Of a stretch of 64,000 bases of DNA, positions 44,018 to 50,407 are shown piece after piece. The stretch lies in assembly GCA_048887225.1 (NCBI GenBank), contig JBHLJY010000011.1, forward strand, positions 13,326 through 77,325. Direction: 5' to 3'. The translations under genes and the position numbers were made by a program. This DNA is from Candidatus Hodarchaeota archaeon (GTDB lineage: Archaea > Asgardarchaeota > Lokiarchaeia > Sigyniarchaeales > SOKP01). The stretch's first letter is position 1. The number at the start of each line of letters is the position of its first letter. The notes beneath the pieces were generated by a model. It saw only the letters and a program-made list of their open reading frames with translations, made no database searches and was not told the origin of the DNA.

Positions 44018-47000
44018 TTGACTTATATTAAAAAAATTAGCATGTCAGGTTTCAAATCCTTTGGAGATCGAACGGTAACAGTTAAGCTTTCAAGCGGCTT
44101 TACTTGTATTGTTGGGCCTAATGGTGCTGGAAAGTCTAATATCATTGATGCGTTATGCTTTGCATTAGGAAGATTAAGCAAGAAGACAATGAGAGCAAAA
44201 TCCCTAGAAGATCTTATTTTTGCGGGTTCAAAAGGTAAAAATCCTGCTAATAGGGCTATGGTTACTTTGCACTTTGATAACTCTGAAAGCGTATTTCCGG
44301 GTGGCGCAAACGGAGATTTTACTATTAGTCGAACTATAAAGAGAGGCGGGGGGGGTGGTTATAAAATGAATGGTAAAAAAGCCACTCGACAACAAATTCT
44401 TAATGCCCTAGCTACAGCTAATATAGATCCTGATGGAACTAACCAATTTGTCCTTCAAGGTAAGATAGTCGAATTAACTCATATGAACTCTGAGGATCGC
44501 AGAAGATTTATTGAAGAACTTATTGGGCTTCAAAAATACGATGAAATGAAAGATGCAACACTAAAGGAACTTGAAAAAGCAGAGCGAGATCTTGGCCAAT
44601 TTGAGGCAATCTTCAATGAAGTATCTGCTCAATTAAGAAAAGTTGAAAAGGAAAAAAATGACGCGCTTGCATGGCGTGAACTAGATGATCAAATAAGTCA
44701 TTATAACGCTCAATTAATCTCTTTGAAAATTTCAAAATTACAAAAAGAAGAAGAAGAATTAGATAAAAAAATCGAAGAATCTGGTAAAGTCATTGAAGAA
44801 TTACAAGAAAAAATAGTTAGACAAGAGGATATTCTGAAACAAGAAACCCTCGTTATGGAAAATATCCAAAAAACTATAACTGAAAAAGAAAAAGAAAGAG
44901 AAGAAATAAACGAAGGTATTACGCAATTAAAGACGCAGTTATCTTCTAATCAAACTACTTTAGATTTAGCTGAAAAATCAATTGAAAAATTAAGACTAGA
45001 AAAGGAAAATTTAGAAAACTTACTAATGACTCTTGAAGAGGGTCAGAATTTTGATTCTCAAATTAAAATTGTAACTATAGAAATCTCTGAAAAAGAAGCA
45101 CAAATAGAAAATGCAAAACAAGATATTGAAAAAAGGCAGCAAAACCAAGCTGAACTAGATATTAAAATTAATAATAGTGAAGATGAAAAATCTAATTTTA
45201 AATTAGAAATTTCGAAAGTTAAACAACAAATCTCATCAAACAAGGCACAAATTAAACTTCTTCGAGAAAATATAAAAAAAAATAAAGATAAGAAAAAGAA
45301 TTTAGAGGCAGAATTAAATAGATTAAAGGGAGAGGCTGAGAGTGTAGAAGATGCTGTTGAAGCGACAAGAAAAATTGAAAGCGAGATTAGAAAAAGAATT
45401 GAAGACTTAAAAAATAAAATTTCTGAAGAAAATAAGAGACAAATGAATTTAGAAAACTCAGTTAGTTCTACACTAAAAGTGAAAAGTGATTTAAATTCAA
45501 AATTATCTGGTTTACAAGCAACATTATCGTCTCTTAATACAGAAATTAAAATGAAAAAAGAGACTATTGCGGAGTTGAATACGAAAAAAGCAGACATTGG
45601 AAAAAAAATTAAAGAATTAAGTAAAGGTAAAGAAACGGAAGAAATTATAAAAGAACTCATAAAAGAAAAAGAAAATAATATTAAAAAAATTACTAACTTA
45701 AAGGCTAAATCCAAAAACGAGGATTCAATTTATCGCGAGAACGAACAAAATTTTGAATTATTAAAATTGAAACAAAACTCTATTGAAACTGAAATTATTG
45801 ATAATAAAGGAAAAATTTCAAACATCAATACCGAACTAAAAATATTTAAAAAAGAATTAATGAACTTAGAGCGTGAAAAACGAAATTTAGACTTAATTAT
45901 TAATGATTTGAACGCTAATATCTCAAAAACAGGAAAAGAAATAAAAAACTTCAATATAAAAAAAGAAAATATCCAAAGACGGCTAAATGAACTCTCTAAA
46001 GAGAAGGAAACTTTATTGAACAGGATTGAAAATACAGAAGAAGAATATGAGAAAAATAAAGAGGATATCACAGGAATTCTACAAATCCTAAATATGCTTA
46101 CTCAAAATATCGATGTGTCTGTAGAATCTATTAAGGGCTCTATACAACAATCAAATACCGAAGCGATTAATACATCTGCGGAAGATTTTAGAAAATTCGT
46201 ATTAGACATTGTTGATATAATGAAAACTCTAGAGAGCGTAGGTGGTGACGCAGATGAAATATCTGAAATGACAGATATGCTTAATTCTATAGTTCAAACA
46301 TTAGGGATTTTTACTGAAAATGCTGATGCTACAATTGAACAACTTATTAATAAAGTAAAGGACTCAGCTGATATTGCAGTACAAAGTTCTACATCAGATT
46401 TTGATAGTTTTGTTCAAGACTTAACATATATCCTTGAAAATGTACATTTGTCTTTAAGAAAATTAACTTTATCTAAAAGTCAAGAGCTTTATAAACAGTT
46501 AGAAGAAATTTCAAATAATATCAAATCTCAAGATGATGACTTAAATGATATTGAGAGAAAACTAACAATAGTGAGTAGTCAAAATAAACATGATTCAGAA
46601 AAACTCTCAGCATCAAAACGAAGGCTTGAGGAAGTTCACAAAAGAATGAAAGATTTAAACTTAAAAGAAGAAAAATATAAGAAAGAAATAGAGGAAAGGA
46701 ATAAGAAAATAAAAGAAAGACAAAGTAATTATGATGATTTAAATAATGAAATAAATAAATTAAAGGAAATAAAAGATAGATACTGGGATAATATTTCTGA
46801 AATTCAAAATGAGAGTGATAGAATCCAAATTGAATTAAACAATAATCAAGAAAAACTTCAAGAACTAGAAGGAATTCAAACTTTATTTGAAAATATAGCA
46901 GATATTGACAATATAATGCTTGAATTGAATAATACTATAGAAGAAAAGAAAAAACTAATAATCGATACTGGAACGAAAATTAATAAGGTACAACAAGAAG

Positions 47001-48475
47001 CAGAATCTTTACAGAAAAAGATAGAAACTTTAACCAGCGACAAAGAGAAATTTTGGGAAACAACTGAGGATATACAGATCAAAATAGATGAAGAAAATAA
47101 AAAATTAGAAGAAACAATAGATGTTCTAAGAGGTCTCGATAATATAATGAGAATTATCCATTCAATTGAAGAATTAAAAAAAGAAAACGTAGAAGCAAAT
47201 AAAAACATTGAACTAAGCAAAAAAAAGATGGATAACTATAATTCTGAAGTTGATAAAATCCAAAAAAATGTTGAAGATAAACAAAGAGTAATAGATACAT
47301 TAAGAGATGAAAAGGCTGCAGAATTAGAAGAGCAAAAGAAAGCTCAAAATAAATTAAATAAGTTAAATAAAAATTTACAGAAAACTCAAGCTAAATTAAA
47401 TGAATTATATAAAAATAAAGAAAGAGAACAACAAATAATCAAAATTGGAGAGAATATCAAAGAGACAGAAAAACAAACAGAAGTTTTAGTAAAAAAAATT
47501 GGAAAACTTGATGAAAATTTAGAAAACGAAATCAAGAAAAAAGATGCAAAACAGGCGGAAATAGATGAATTTATTAAAGAAAAAGATGAATCTTGGAAAA
47601 AGCAAAAACAATATCAAAATATAATTACTGATCTTAAGTCAGATCTTTCAATGGAGAATTCTAAAATAAACAATTTTGAATCTAAAAAATTTATTTGTAT
47701 TGATCAGATTGAAACTTTATATGAGAGATCAAAAGATTATGGTACTCTACCTCCAGTAACTGATGAGATCACGGAAGAGGGCCTACAATCGGATATTGAA
47801 ATTGCTACAAAAAAGAAAAAAGCACTTGAGCCCGTCAATTTAAAAGCTATTGAACAATACGATGTTGTTAAAGAAAGATTTGATGAAATAGATATGCGAA
47901 GACAAACAATTCAAAGAGAAAGAAAGGCAATTCTTGACTCAATTGATAAAATTGAATTAGAAAAAACACGTACCTTTATGAAAGCTTATCACGAAATTAA
48001 TCGTGAGTTTTCACGGATTTTCCAGAAACTTTCTCCTGGTGGTTCAGCAAAAATGATTCTGGATAGACCTGATAAACCCTTTGAAGGCGGAATTAGCATT
48101 GAGGCAAGACCAAGGGGTAAAAAGATTAGTTCCCTAGAAATTTTAAGTGGAGGTGAAAAAACATTAGTAGCATTATCATTTATTTTTGCTGTTCAAGAAT
48201 TTTATCCTGCTCCGTTTTACATTTTAGATGAGATTGATGCCGCATTAGACGGTCCAAATGTTCATCGCGTTAGTATGGTGCTCAAAGAATTCTCAAGCCA
48301 AGCTCAATTTTTAGTGATTAGCCATCGAGAAGAAAATATTGTTAATGCAGATAGAATTTATGGAGTTTCGATGCCGCAAAGCGGAATCACTGATATATTT
48401 AGTGTCGATTTAGAAGAAGAAGCAAAAAGACTTCTTGAACTTGAAGATGTCGTGCCTGAAGTTGGAGAGGGCTAA
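44018..48475 (+). CDS. smc: SMC chromosome segregation ATPase, atypical (long arms, no canonical hinge)
   Basis: GFKSF, GPNGAGKSN, Q-loop VLQG, PVNLKA, LSGGEK, YILDEIDAALD, ISH; TTG start with GGGAGA upstream. Confidence 0.93.
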   Translation: MTYIKKISMSGFKSFGDRTVTVKLSSGFTCIVGPNGAGKSNIIDALCFALGRLSKKTMRAKSLEDLIFAGSKGKNPANRAMVTLHFDNSESVFPGGANGDFTISRTIKRGGGGGYKMNGKKATRQQILNALATANIDPDGTNQFVLQGKIVELTHMNSEDRRRFIEELIGLQKYDEMKDATLKELEKAERDLGQFEAIFNEVSAQLRKVEKEKNDALAWRELDDQISHYNAQLISLKISKLQKEEEELDKKIEESGKVIEELQEKIVRQEDILKQETLVMENIQKTITEKEKEREEINEGITQLKTQLSSNQTTLDLAEKSIEKLRLEKENLENLLMTLEEGQNFDSQIKIVTIEISEKEAQIENAKQDIEKRQQNQAELDIKINNSEDEKSNFKLEISKVKQQISSNKAQIKLLRENIKKNKDKKKNLEAELNRLKGEAESVEDAVEATRKIESEIRKRIEDLKNKISEENKRQMNLENSVSSTLKVKSDLNSKLSGLQATLSSLNTEIKMKKETIAELNTKKADIGKKIKELSKGKETEEIIKELIKEKENNIKKITNLKAKSKNEDSIYRENEQNFELLKLKQNSIETEIIDNKGKISNINTELKIFKKELMNLEREKRNLDLIINDLNANISKTGKEIKNFNIKKENIQRRLNELSKEKETLLNRIENTEEEYEKNKEDITGILQILNMLTQNIDVSVESIKGSIQQSNTEAINTSAEDFRKFVLDIVDIMKTLESVGGDADEISEMTDMLNSIVQTLGIFTENADATIEQLINKVKDSADIAVQSSTSDFDSFVQDLTYILENVHLSLRKLTLSKSQELYKQLEEISNNIKSQDDDLNDIERKLTIVSSQNKHDSEKLSASKRRLEEVHKRMKDLNLKEEKYKKEIEERNKKIKERQSNYDDLNNEINKLKEIKDRYWDNISEIQNESDRIQIELNNNQEKLQELEGIQTLFENIADIDNIMLELNNTIEEKKKLIIDTGTKINKVQQEAESLQKKIETLTSDKEKFWETTEDIQIKIDEENKKLEETIDVLRGLDNIMRIIHSIEELKKENVEANKNIELSKKKMDNYNSEVDKIQKNVEDKQRVIDTLRDEKAAELEEQKKAQNKLNKLNKNLQKTQAKLNELYKNKEREQQIIKIGENIKETEKQTEVLVKKIGKLDENLENEIKKKDAKQAEIDEFIKEKDESWKKQKQYQNIITDLKSDLSMENSKINNFESKKFICIDQIETLYERSKDYGTLPPVTDEITEEGLQSDIEIATKKKKALEPVNLKAIEQYDVVKERFDEIDMRRQTIQRERKAILDSIDKIELEKTRTFMKAYHEINREFSRIFQKLSPGGSAKMILDRPDKPFEGGISIEARPRGKKISSLEILSGGEKTLVALSFIFAVQEFYPAPFYILDEIDAALDGPNVHRVSMVLKEFSSQAQFLVISHREENIVNADRIYGVSMPQSGITDIFSVDLEEEAKRLLELEDVVPEVGEG

Positions 48476-48493: not shown

Positions 48494-49498
48494 GTGTTAA
48501 TAATTTCAGATGAGAAAAGTTCTATGAAAGATATCGATTTTTACAAATGGACAGTAAAGGAATTAAAAGAATTTTGTAGTAAGAATAATATAAAAATACC
48601 CGCAAAGTCTAGAAAAAAAGATATCGTAGAACTTATTCAAAATATAGTATCACATCCTGATTTTATTGATAGATCACAAGAAGAAATGTTAGAAGAAGAA
48701 ATAGTTGCGGAATTTGTTGATGAAGATCTTGCGTTATTAAGAAAAGAGAAAATGGATTTAAAATTTTGGCAAAAACCTCCCTATTCTTCATTATTGGATC
48801 TTGAATTAGCTAAAGATTCTGAACTAGTATTTTATGATTTAGCTAACTTGATTGAAAAATTCTTTTCTAAAATGCTTCAAGAAGATTTAATTAATTATAA
48901 AATTTCAGGAATTGCACTAAAATCAGCAGCATCTTTACATCATTATAAAATTTCTAGCATAATAAAAGAAGAAGAACAGATTCAAAAAATGGAGGAACTA
49001 GAAAAATTAAGGGCTAGACATTCAAGAACGATTCCTAAATCATTACCGCAACCTACAAAACCTAAAATGCAATTAGCCACAAAAGAAGAATTATTTGATG
49101 CAATGAGAGCTGCAATCATTGAAACTATGCAAAACAAAGAAAAATTGAAACGTCGACGGTTGCACAGAGAAGAAGAAAAACAGAAAAGATTACAAATGAA
49201 GTCAAAAGCAAAATTACCTAAAGAACTCTTAAAACACATTAGCGGAAAAGAACAATCTATAGAAGAATTACATGAAAGCTGGTTTAATAGAATAAAAGGA
49301 ACAATTAATCTTAACAATGTGGATACGAGTTTTTTTGATCTTCTCAAGATAATAAAAAGCGACGAAAAAAGTCGCATTGGCAGGAAGTTTGCTCTTGTAA
49401 GATTGTTCTTAGCCCTAATGTTCTTGAGTACTAATAATAAAATTGAGTTATTTCAAGATGATGAATTTAAAGATGTTTCAATTAGTCTTAAAAAATAA
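48494..49498 (+). CDS. scpA: Kleisin ScpA with N-terminal HeH/SAP-like domain
   Basis: DL..LIEKF.......NY..SG.AL..AA.L..YK N-kleisin segment and FLAL.FL....I.L.Q...F.D C-terminal wHTH; lies between smc and scpB. Confidence 0.85.
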   Translation: MLIISDEKSSMKDIDFYKWTVKELKEFCSKNNIKIPAKSRKKDIVELIQNIVSHPDFIDRSQEEMLEEEIVAEFVDEDLALLRKEKMDLKFWQKPPYSSLLDLELAKDSELVFYDLANLIEKFFSKMLQEDLINYKISGIALKSAASLHHYKISSIIKEEEQIQKMEELEKLRARHSRTIPKSLPQPTKPKMQLATKEELFDAMRAAIIETMQNKEKLKRRRLHREEEKQKRLQMKSKAKLPKELLKHISGKEQSIEELHESWFNRIKGTINLNNVDTSFFDLLKIIKSDEKSRIGRKFALVRLFLALMFLSTNNKIELFQDDEFKDVSISLKK

Positions 49499-49531: not shown

Positions 49532-50407
49532 TTGAATAATTTTAATGAAGATTTAGATGAGAATTCTAAAGAAGATAATGAAGATCATTTAGATCAGGAG
49601 TCAAAAGAAGAATCAAATGATCTTTCAAATGAAGAAATTGATGAAATTCCCAAGATTCAATCTCAAGGAAGCGCTACTAAAGGTACTAGTGAAGAAATTA
49701 TTGACGATATAATTTCAAAAAGCGAGATCGATGCTCAAATAGGATTTTCTTCGAAGTCTGATCTTTCTGAAGAAGATATGTTAGTAAGACAATTAAGGGA
49801 TTTTCATCGAAATCAAATTGAAGCTTCTCTTTATGTAGCAGGCAGACCATTGAGTATTGAAGAATTATCAACTAAACTCGAAATTAAAAAAAAAGAAGTT
49901 GAAGAATTAATCAATGAAATTGCTTTCGATTATTTAGATCGTTCAACTGCCCTGGTAATTGCTCAAATAGGAGATAGCTACCAAATGCAAATTAAACCTG
50001 AATATGCAGAAAAAGTCTCAAAATTAGCTAAAGGTGGTGCTATAGCAGAGAGGTACTTAAGAACATTAACTATTATCGCTTTGAAACAACCTATTTTGAA
50101 ATCTTTAGTTGTGAAAATAAGAGGAAGCGGAGCTTATGAGCATATCAAATATCTTCAGGATAACGGTCTAATCGCTGCGGTGAAAAAAGGAAGAACACAC
50201 GAGTTAACTACAACGGATAAATATTCTGAAATGTTTGGATTACCAAAAGATATAGAAGAACTGAAAAGAGTAATGATCTCGCAATTAGGTCTTGATGAAG
50301 TAGAATCTGGAGATGAAATTTCTTATGAAATTGAAGTACCTGCCGAAGATAATGTATTTTCTGAAGATGAAGAATCATCTGAAAATGAAGAAAATACTCA
50401 AGAATAA
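49532..50407 (+). CDS. scpB: KITE subunit ScpB with acidic N- and C-terminal extensions
   Basis: IEA.LY....PLS, Y.MQ.K.EY, TL.IIA.KQPI, IRG, TT..Y...FGL. Confidence 0.92.
   Translation: MNNFNEDLDENSKEDNEDHLDQESKEESNDLSNEEIDEIPKIQSQGSATKGTSEEIIDDIISKSEIDAQIGFSSKSDLSEEDMLVRQLRDFHRNQIEASLYVAGRPLSIEELSTKLEIKKKEVEELINEIAFDYLDRSTALVIAQIGDSYQMQIKPEYAEKVSKLAKGGAIAERYLRTLTIIALKQPILKSLVVKIRGSGAYEHIKYLQDNGLIAAVKKGRTHELTTTDKYSEMFGLPKDIEELKRVMISQLGLDEVESGDEISYEIEVPAEDNVFSEDEESSENEENTQE

Follow-up and report, generated by a model that had tools for sequence, protein, structure and literature searches.

We analysed a stretch of 64,000 nucleotides of DNA from Candidatus Hodarchaeota archaeon (GenBank assembly GCA_048887225.1, contig JBHLJY010000011.1, positions 13,326 to 77,325 of the forward strand), which is referred to as the window. 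The window encodes a long SMC (structural maintenance of chromosomes) protein, followed by genes for a putative kleisin and for ScpB (Table 1). The names carried by near-identical homologues assign the source organism to the Asgard archaea (Promethearchaeota/Lokiarchaeia). The segment at positions 46061–46490, which had been singled out in an earlier note on this DNA, encodes amino acids (aa) 682–824 of the 1485-aa SMC open reading frame at 44018–48475 (plus strand). At the position of the hinge, this part of the long SMC carries a tandemly duplicated, acidic, helical module of ~145 aa overall, which is called the apex.

The long SMC has the ATPase head and arms of a member of its family. The translation shows every ATPase motif in intact form, namely GPNGAGKS (Walker A), LSGGEK (signature), FYILDEID (Walker B), and ISHR (H-loop). 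The PF02463 profile matches the protein with an E-value (E) of 2.5e-45 and spans aa 3–1458, with the halves of the head at the two termini. The protein scores 584 bits with TIGR02168, for which the cut-off is 567, and 614 bits with TIGR02169, which is under the cut-off of 729. The latter match is split into five stretches, and the hinge-bearing paralogue from the same genome reaches 792 bits. The best solved relatives of the long SMC are the heads of Pyrococcus Smc, with 401 bits. Judged by its head, its arms, and its partner genes, the protein appears to be a genuine SMC of the Smc-ScpAB type that has no hinge.

The limits of the arms were set by alignment to solved heads, which gives lengths of ~494 and 502 residues compared to ~325–357 in the canonical paralogue, so that the arms of the long SMC are ~1.5 times longer. 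The heads stop at ~aa 184 and restart at ~aa 1313, which places the midpoint of the arms at ~aa 745, in the tip loop of the apex. The modelled part of the outgoing arm, aa 601–678, is one unbroken helix with a predicted local distance difference test score (pLDDT) of ~95.

Other identities of the gene product were rejected. An assembly artefact or pseudogene is ruled out, as more than 100 genomes contain intact orthologues of 1464–1497 aa. The best score obtained with Rad50 models is 89 bits, compared to cut-offs of 700–1087, and 16 family members contain no CxxC motif. The RecN model TIGR00634 scores 28 bits against a cut-off of 408.

Table 1. Coordinates of the long SMC gene, its parts, its partner genes, and related genes at other loci. 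Positions without a prefix are those of the window.
Feature	Position	Strand	Properties
Long hinge-less SMC	44018..48475	+	1485 aa, TTG start; open reading frame and translation
N-terminal half of ATPase head, aa ~1-184	44018..44569	+	aa 2-184 aligned to Pyrococcus SMC N-head chain 1xew_X; column conservation 0.88-0.91
Outgoing coiled-coil arm, aa ~185-678 (~494 aa)	44570..46051	+	limits from head and hinge matches; conservation 0.58-0.75
Apex unit 1, aa 679-739	46052..46234	+	predicted helix continuous with outgoing arm; unit profile 100.9 bits
Tip loop, aa 740-749, GGDAD at 742-746	46235..46264	+	aa 742-747/748 non-helical in both models; acidic
Apex unit 2, aa 750-810	46265..46447	+	predicted returning helix, kink at N768; unit profile 34.6 bits
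Start of returning arm, aa 811-830, strongly conserved	46448..46507	+	mean conservation 0.92, polar and hydrophobic columns alike
Returning coiled-coil arm, aa ~831-1312	46508..47953	+	helix 820-899 with pLDDT 91-95; conservation 0.56-0.85
C-terminal half of ATPase head, aa ~1313-1485	47954..48475	+	aa 1313-1474 aligned to Pyrococcus Smc head chains; conservation 0.92-0.96
Putative kleisin (ScpA-like), 334 aa	48494..49498	+	PF02616 E 5.5e-4 on aa 214-332, under curated cut-off
ScpB (kite), 291 aa	49532..50407	+	PF04079 E 3.1e-36 on aa 95-246; TIGR00281 99.6 bits, cut-off 89.2
Canonical SMC paralogue, 1193 aa	L011:8543-12124	-	strong PF06470 hinge; TIGR02169 792 bits
Short ScpB-like gene, 188 aa, after canonical SMC	L011:7990-8556		no detectable kleisin at this locus
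Third, divergent SMC type, ~1120-1190 aa	L121:1196-4660 and relatives L117-L126	- (L121)	weak hinge match, E 1e-4 to 1e-14
P0164, ~1000 aa	L095:4997-8122	-	closed sister-family genome; relatives P0142-P0159; no Pfam match

The hinge position of the long SMC

The canonical hinge is absent from the long SMC according to several measures. The hinge profile PF06470 (SMC_hinge) does not match the whole protein at E ≤ 0.01 or its segment aa 560–960 at E ≤ 10; the same profile scores an E of 3e-33 on the other SMC of the same genome. The glycine motif G-x(5-7)-G-x(2-4)-GG is present in 14 of 21 canonical Asgard SMCs and in none of 16 long SMCs, and all 16 long SMCs examined lack CxxC. Alignment of the apex profile with a canonical-hinge profile by hhalign resulted in a probability of 0.2%. 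No beta-strand was assigned by DSSP in two AlphaFold2 models of the region, which contain helix only.

The module that occupies the place of the hinge is repetitive. In a single BLASTP comparison of aa 670–745 with aa 746–830, residues 684–736 pair with 755–807 without gaps, with 16 identities in 53 positions and an E of 2e-8. Profile-profile alignment (hhalign) of the first and second units, each represented by the family, extends the correspondence to 61 ungapped columns, aa 679–739 against aa 750–810, with a probability of 98.5% and an E of 1.5e-15. These comparisons indicate that the tandem duplication is real and family-wide. The apex has a net charge of −15 and an isoelectric point (pI) of 4.2, close to the family mean charge of −15.6 ± 2.4, and the hinge of the canonical SMC paralogue from the same genome has a net charge of +14 and a pI of 9.85.

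Most of what the earlier note had read from the letters of this region is borne out. It had described a protein midpoint with no hinge, glycine motif, beta-strand, or CxxC hook, on which the profile, motif, and DSSP tests agree. It had also described an ungapped repeat of aa 684–735 and 755–806 with 16 of 52 identities, which BLASTP and the profiles recover in a slightly longer form with units of 61 aa. The GGDAD sequence, said to join the repeats, is read at aa 742–746, and the acidic character of the region is evident from its charge and pI.

The location of the apex at the protein midpoint, which is the hinge position, could be explained if it were a canonical hinge that had diverged beyond recognition. 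However, the hinge profiles find no similarity even at permissive thresholds, and neither of the models contains a beta-strand. Furthermore, the architecture of the apex, in which a helical unit is duplicated in tandem, is unrelated to that of the hinge, and the apex and the paralogue's hinge carry opposite charges. We therefore regard an unrecognizable hinge as an extremely improbable explanation, and the replacement of the hinge by an all-helical duplicated module is well supported.

The structure of the apex was predicted with AlphaFold2 in two monomer runs, one for aa 600–900 with an alignment of 84 sequences and one for aa 668–832. The first model has a mean pLDDT of 84.8 and contains helices at aa 601–741, 748–767, 769–817, and 820–899, with a loop at aa 742–747. 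Its pLDDT is ~95 in the arm part, 77–81 in the apex, and 58 in the loop. The second model forms the same hairpin and is kinked again at N768. The break of the helix, at model residue 169 in the first run and 101 in the second, corresponds to aa 768 in both, and one family member carries a two-residue insertion there. The apex is thus predicted to be a helical hairpin that turns at aa 742–748. The helical bundle proposed in the earlier note is not reproduced, as both models are two-helix hairpins with one kink rather than a compact bundle. Superposition on the canonical hinge, which would have refuted the same note, is seen for neither model, and hinge entries align via their coiled coils only in both Foldseek and VIA-align searches. 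A prediction of a complex of two copies of aa 600–900, made from the alignment of 84 rows and without controls, scored 0.04 and counts neither for nor against binding.

Searches with the predicted structure identified common helical arrangements. Foldseek comparison of the 301-aa model with the Protein Data Bank (PDB) returned generic long coiled coils only, and VIA-align against 48,161 chains returned long helical hairpins only. The hairpin matches include chemoreceptor 2ch7, PrgA, the dynein stalk, Smc arm fragments (5nnv, 5xg2), the MukB elbow, and the Rad50 coiled-coil or hook entries 7zr1 and 7zqy. A Foldseek search with the apex-only model found nothing under an E of 0.38. In an ESM Atlas feature search with aa 668–832, the best matches were unnamed clusters with a score of 0.89, and the named ones (with Rad50_zn_hook in 23% of the members, and SMC_hinge in 55%) scored 0.77–0.78, which is within chance. 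The Pfam families PF24161 (CCDC39) and PF23649 (FKBP15), which are listed for homologues, were rejected as generic coiled-coil noise that does not describe the apex.

Distribution, paralogues, and partner genes

An exhaustive HMMER search with aa 640–870 against 1.84 billion representatives identified 38 proteins only. The full-length ones among them are SMCs of 1296–1497 aa, with sequence identities down to 21%. One of the relatives, P0141 (labelled Sigynarchaeota, 1296 aa), has the same apex at aa 581–719, with both arms ~90–95 residues shorter and 577 residues past the apex, compared to 665 in the long SMC of the window. The arms of P0141 fit a history in which both strands jointly gained or lost one module each.

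To determine the distribution of the apex, 301 sampled genomes of the phylum were searched with the apex profile at a threshold of 1e-5. The profile matched 60 of the 68 genomes from the window's family and all seven of the sister family from the same order (67 of 75 together). Outside the two families there are two strong matches, both in other families, one of which comes from a 72%-complete bin with three separate matches, probably originating from mis-binned contigs. Three more matches in other families barely pass the threshold. The apex module is therefore near-universal in one Asgard order (Promethearchaeota/Lokiarchaeia), and there is almost none elsewhere in the sample. Several SMC copies with 60–66% identity are labelled as Thor-, Odin-, Hod-, Heimdall-, or Hermodarchaeota, and a Lokiarchaeial SMC with ~62% identity is present in contig DATKTW010000114.1 (L048) and as protein P0162, in bins labelled as Nanopelagicaceae bacterium and Chloroflexi bacterium. 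All of these odd taxon labels are probably binning or labelling errors.

The genome from which the window originates encodes two types of SMC, the long one and, on another contig, the canonical SMC of 1193 aa. The canonical paralogue and its orthologues in the order are without the usual G-x6-G-x3-GG hinge motif and occupy a long branch, and most genomes of the family lack these proteins. When the window's own genome is included, just nine of the 69 genomes from the window's family have a strong canonical hinge (E < 1e-30). Four genomes of the family were inspected in detail, three of them 100% complete and one 92% complete. They contain two SMC-type genes only, the long hinge-less one and a divergent one of 1151–1167 aa with a weak hinge match, and the long SMC is the only one with a canonical head. 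In most genomes of the window's family, the long hinge-less SMC is the only SMC with a canonical head, and no canonical hinge-bearing SMC is left.

The divergent SMC is a third type, which is widespread in the phylum; it has a variant Walker A motif, which reads GPNWSGKT in members from the window's family. No gene of this type was found in the genome from which the window originates, and all three SMC types are present in the closed sister-family genome. The divergent type may correspond to the archaeal SMC published as 'SMC5/6-related', although pairwise PDB and NCBIfam searches did not show that.

The origin of the long SMC was addressed with a maximum-likelihood tree of head domains, calculated from 44 sequences and 418 columns, without non-Asgard and eukaryotic sequences. 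In this tree, the long SMCs group together with 100/100 support, in one clade that is nested in the radiation of canonical Asgard SMCs; the tree does not single out their exact sister group. Since the clade lies inside the canonical radiation, the hinge-less SMC derives from the canonical SMC as a paralogue, and its origin lies in the ancestor of the order or earlier. A 100/100 branch parts the long SMC clade from that of the divergent SMC, which places the long SMC outside that divergent group. The family is almost confined to one order among the sampled Asgard archaea, and therefore has little direct bearing on the ancestor of eukaryotic SMCs.

The order of genes smc, kleisin, and scpB is kept in 40 of the 51 related loci that have sufficient downstream DNA, and the conserved operon contains no candidate partner of the apex besides kleisin and ScpB. 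The 334-aa kleisin is the sole ScpA-like match in the genome. When its family profile was compared with solved structures, four of the top six matches were C-terminal winged helices of kleisins (Scc1, ScpA), each of them weak, with an E of 0.04–0.31; a search of solved structures with the single sequence gave no match. The N-terminus of the putative kleisin (positions 48494–48660) resembles the helix-extension-helix (HeH) domains of the HeH/LEM, SAP, Ish1, or Rho_N type, with matches in up to 13 of 16 orthologues and a best E of 6.9e-7. To our knowledge, canonical ScpA has no HeH/SAP-type N-terminal domain. It is possible that this domain supplies a DNA contact. ScpB has an N-terminal extension of ~90 aa (positions 49532–49810) ahead of its PF04079 region, and model NF001106 ('ScpB long form') matches it weakly.

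The apex module is also present in a second, unrelated type of protein. Second matches to the apex profile were found in five of the seven genomes of the sister family, and the one that was examined, in the closed genome, is P0164. It contains two complete apex modules, at aa 66–208 (E of 1e-46) and aa 332–460 (E of 1e-10). The two modules of P0164 are accompanied by a middle region with much non-helical sequence, by a coiled coil, and by a basic tail rich in lysine and threonine, like that of histone H1 or HC2. No second copy of the module was found in the window's genome when all open reading frames of at least 60 aa were searched with hidden Markov models of the apex and of the single unit. 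On the basis of these matches, the apex is an autonomous module that recurs outside SMC proteins.

Conservation and possible role of the apex

Conservation was calculated by column for 112 full-length members of the family. It is 0.9–0.98 in the heads and 0.56–0.85, mostly below 0.75, in the arms, and reaches 0.92 at aa 691–720 and 0.84 at aa 781–840. The polar columns, which are presumably exposed, have conservation of 0.86 in unit 1 and 0.76 in unit 2, compared to 0.66–0.68 in the arms. The tip loop is the least conserved stretch of the region, with a mean of 0.37, and it is where the insertions and deletions of the family alignment fall. Q710, S720, D730, T761, N768, and D801 are among the conserved residues of the apex. 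The apex differs from the arms in its composition as well: the fraction of hydrophobic residues is 0.40 compared to 0.29, with hydrophobic doublets every three to four residues, and that of charged residues is 0.26 compared to 0.41. Such a composition suits helices that are buried on more than one face. Together with the drop in pLDDT from the arms to the apex in the monomer model, these features suggest that the apex is more than a passive turn. Because all helical faces are constrained, the hydrophobic surface is broad, and the tip is free, a lateral protein-protein interface fits better than a two-stranded coiled coil. The combination of a variable tip and conserved flanks indicates side-by-side rather than tip-to-tip contact. 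Local peaks of conservation are also present in the returning arm, at aa 1021–1050 (positions 47078–47167; 0.77) and aa 1111–1140 (positions 47348–47437; 0.84), and may represent an elbow, a joint, or a site at which the apex docks.

We consider it fairly probable, by a modest lean, that the long SMC dimerizes through the duplicated helical apex. Long-armed SMC-like ATPases are, as a general rule, joined at the apex, and it is from this rule, together with the composition and all-face conservation of the module, that we infer self-association, which is plausible. The protein is a lineage-specific paralogue of the canonical archaeal SMC that would work with its own kleisin and ScpB. Unit 1 is predicted to extend the helix of the outgoing arm, the short, variable GGDAD loop to reverse the chain, and unit 2 to return antiparallel to unit 1. 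The resulting pseudo-symmetric helical hairpin caps arms of ~500 residues, compared to ~330 in the canonical paralogue, with an estimated length of ~75–80 nm at ~0.15 nm per residue. Two SMC arms would most likely be joined laterally, through an interface on the conserved flanks of the hairpin rather than at its tip, and two hairpins packed side by side may form a four-helix bundle. The module would take over the dimerization role of the hinge. Since it is strongly acidic, with the charge reversed relative to the hinge, it would not take over the role of the hinge in DNA binding. Contact with DNA would be shifted to the heads and possibly also to the HeH/SAP-like domain of the kleisin; we infer such a division of labour between the apex and the kleisin.

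Alternatively, the apex could be a mere structural cap that closes the coiled coil, and the protein would be joined only via the ATP-engaged heads and the kleisin, which would make it a truly open, hinge-less SMC. The monomer models do fold as self-contained hairpins, and hinge-less SMC homologues with no obvious apex domain were reported from marine Actinobacteria (PMC12153180). However, a passive cap needs neither 145 residues conserved on all faces at levels similar to those of the heads nor a composition distinct from that of the arms. Conservation is lowest in the loop, where the chain of the apex actually turns, and the re-use of a cap in another protein would be unexpected. We find the cap an improbable explanation.

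A two-helix hairpin with conserved flanks could equally dock another protein or a part of the same complex, and the apex would then be a docking platform and not a site of homodimerization. The acidic flanks may bind another protein. If the long arms are folded at an elbow, the flanks may instead contact a basic region within the complex itself, such as the heads, the joint, or the middle part of the kleisin, which is basic, and the contact would serve regulation or autoinhibition. The conservation of all faces and the net charge of −15 are compatible with docking, as are the two conservation peaks in the returning arm. The chemoreceptor hairpin, the closest structural analogue, binds partners via its conserved tip region. 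Furthermore, a protein of the sister family that carries an H1-like basic tail has two copies of the module, and pairing of like with like between this protein and the SMC apex is possible. Such a partner is not general, however, as the window's genome has no second protein with the module, and its conserved operon offers none beyond kleisin and ScpB. Docking in place of dimerization seems unlikely to us, but the two are compatible, and both could hold.

Other points, too, weigh against dimerization through the apex. The models of the apex are monomers of moderate confidence, with a pLDDT of 76–81 and a predicted template modelling score of 0.40–0.47. Most of the sequences in the conservation analysis are 60–75% identical over the apex region, and part of the conservation signal thus reflects shared ancestry. 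The 334-aa protein is weakly assigned as a kleisin, by sub-threshold matches and synteny.

A more far-reaching version of the dimerization model may be considered tentatively, and we doubt it on balance. In this version, a previously undescribed self-associating apex would fully replace the hinge in a working Smc-kleisin-ScpB motor, and in most members of one Lokiarchaeia family this would be the chief canonical-type SMC or the sole one. Both the hinge fold and the binding of DNA by the hinge would be dispensable, and in the sister family the module in the H1-tailed protein would tether the SMC apex to chromatin. If this version holds, nature itself would demonstrate that SMC proteins can function without these two features of the hinge.

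Comparison with known SMC systems

The role of the SMC hinge beyond joining the arms is a long-running question, and the proposals include DNA binding, a gate for DNA, and swinging onto the heads during loop extrusion. The family of long SMCs represents a natural test of what the hinge is needed for. It also provides a new compact helical module that is absent from Pfam. The long SMC shares with the canonical Smc-ScpAB of Pyrococcus and Bacillus subtilis (TIGR02169/TIGR02168, PF02463 and PF06470) the split ABC-type head, the antiparallel arms, and the downstream kleisin and ScpB. It differs from them in having neither a hinge nor a glycine motif, in arms that are ~1.5 times longer, in the acidic helical apex, and in the HeH/SAP-like domain on the kleisin.

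Two SMC complexes were described in TACK and Asgard archaea (PMC8665677; bioRxiv 10.1101/2024.01.07.573240). The passages of these two sources on 'hinge' and 'Asgard' contain no mention of a hinge-less Asgard SMC or of a repertoire of three paralogues. The three SMC paralogues of one Asgard order go beyond the published scenarios with two complexes.

SMC homologues from marine Actinobacteria were reported to be without a hinge and without a CxxC hook (PMC12153180), and beyond this report a full-text search of open-access papers and preprints returned nothing on hinge-less archaeal SMCs. The actinobacterial homologues are bacterial, and no duplicated apex module, lengthened arms, or co-occurring regular SMC was described for them. 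Since the long SMC family arises inside the canonical SMCs of Asgard archaea, its origin is likely to be independent of that of the actinobacterial proteins.

The best full-length structural match of the model is the hairpin of chemoreceptor 2ch7, with a Z-score of 15.1 over 296 residues and a root-mean-square deviation of 7.6 Å. Both are long antiparallel helical hairpins, but they share 5% identity and no sequence relationship, and a match of long helices at such a Z-score reflects a common arrangement only. In the chemoreceptor, the conserved tip region of the hairpin mediates the contacts of the dimer, which is a four-helix bundle, as well as those with partners.

Rad50/SbcC and RecN resemble the long SMC in having a helical apex, and no globular hinge, at the end of a long antiparallel coiled coil. 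The apex is the dimerization site of both. The long SMC differs from them in the absence of a zinc hook, in head scores far under the cut-offs of their models (89 bits compared to 1087 for Rad50, and 28 compared to 408 for RecN), and in its partners, which are kleisin and ScpB rather than Mre11.

There is also an engineered parallel. The Smc(Zh) chimera of B. subtilis, in which the hinge was swapped for the zinc hook of Pyrococcus Rad50, was called functional (PMC5344682). This indicates that the hinge fold is not strictly required and that a small dimerizing apex can suffice. Like the long SMC, Smc(Zh) is an Smc-ScpAB protein with a small helical-hairpin apex in place of the hinge (PMC5344682). 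Smc(Zh) is man-made and dimerizes by a CxxC zinc site at its tip, whereas the long SMC is natural and has no cysteine, a variable tip, and conserved flanks. The long SMC is a natural counterpart of the engineered chimera in which a zinc hook took the place of the hinge.

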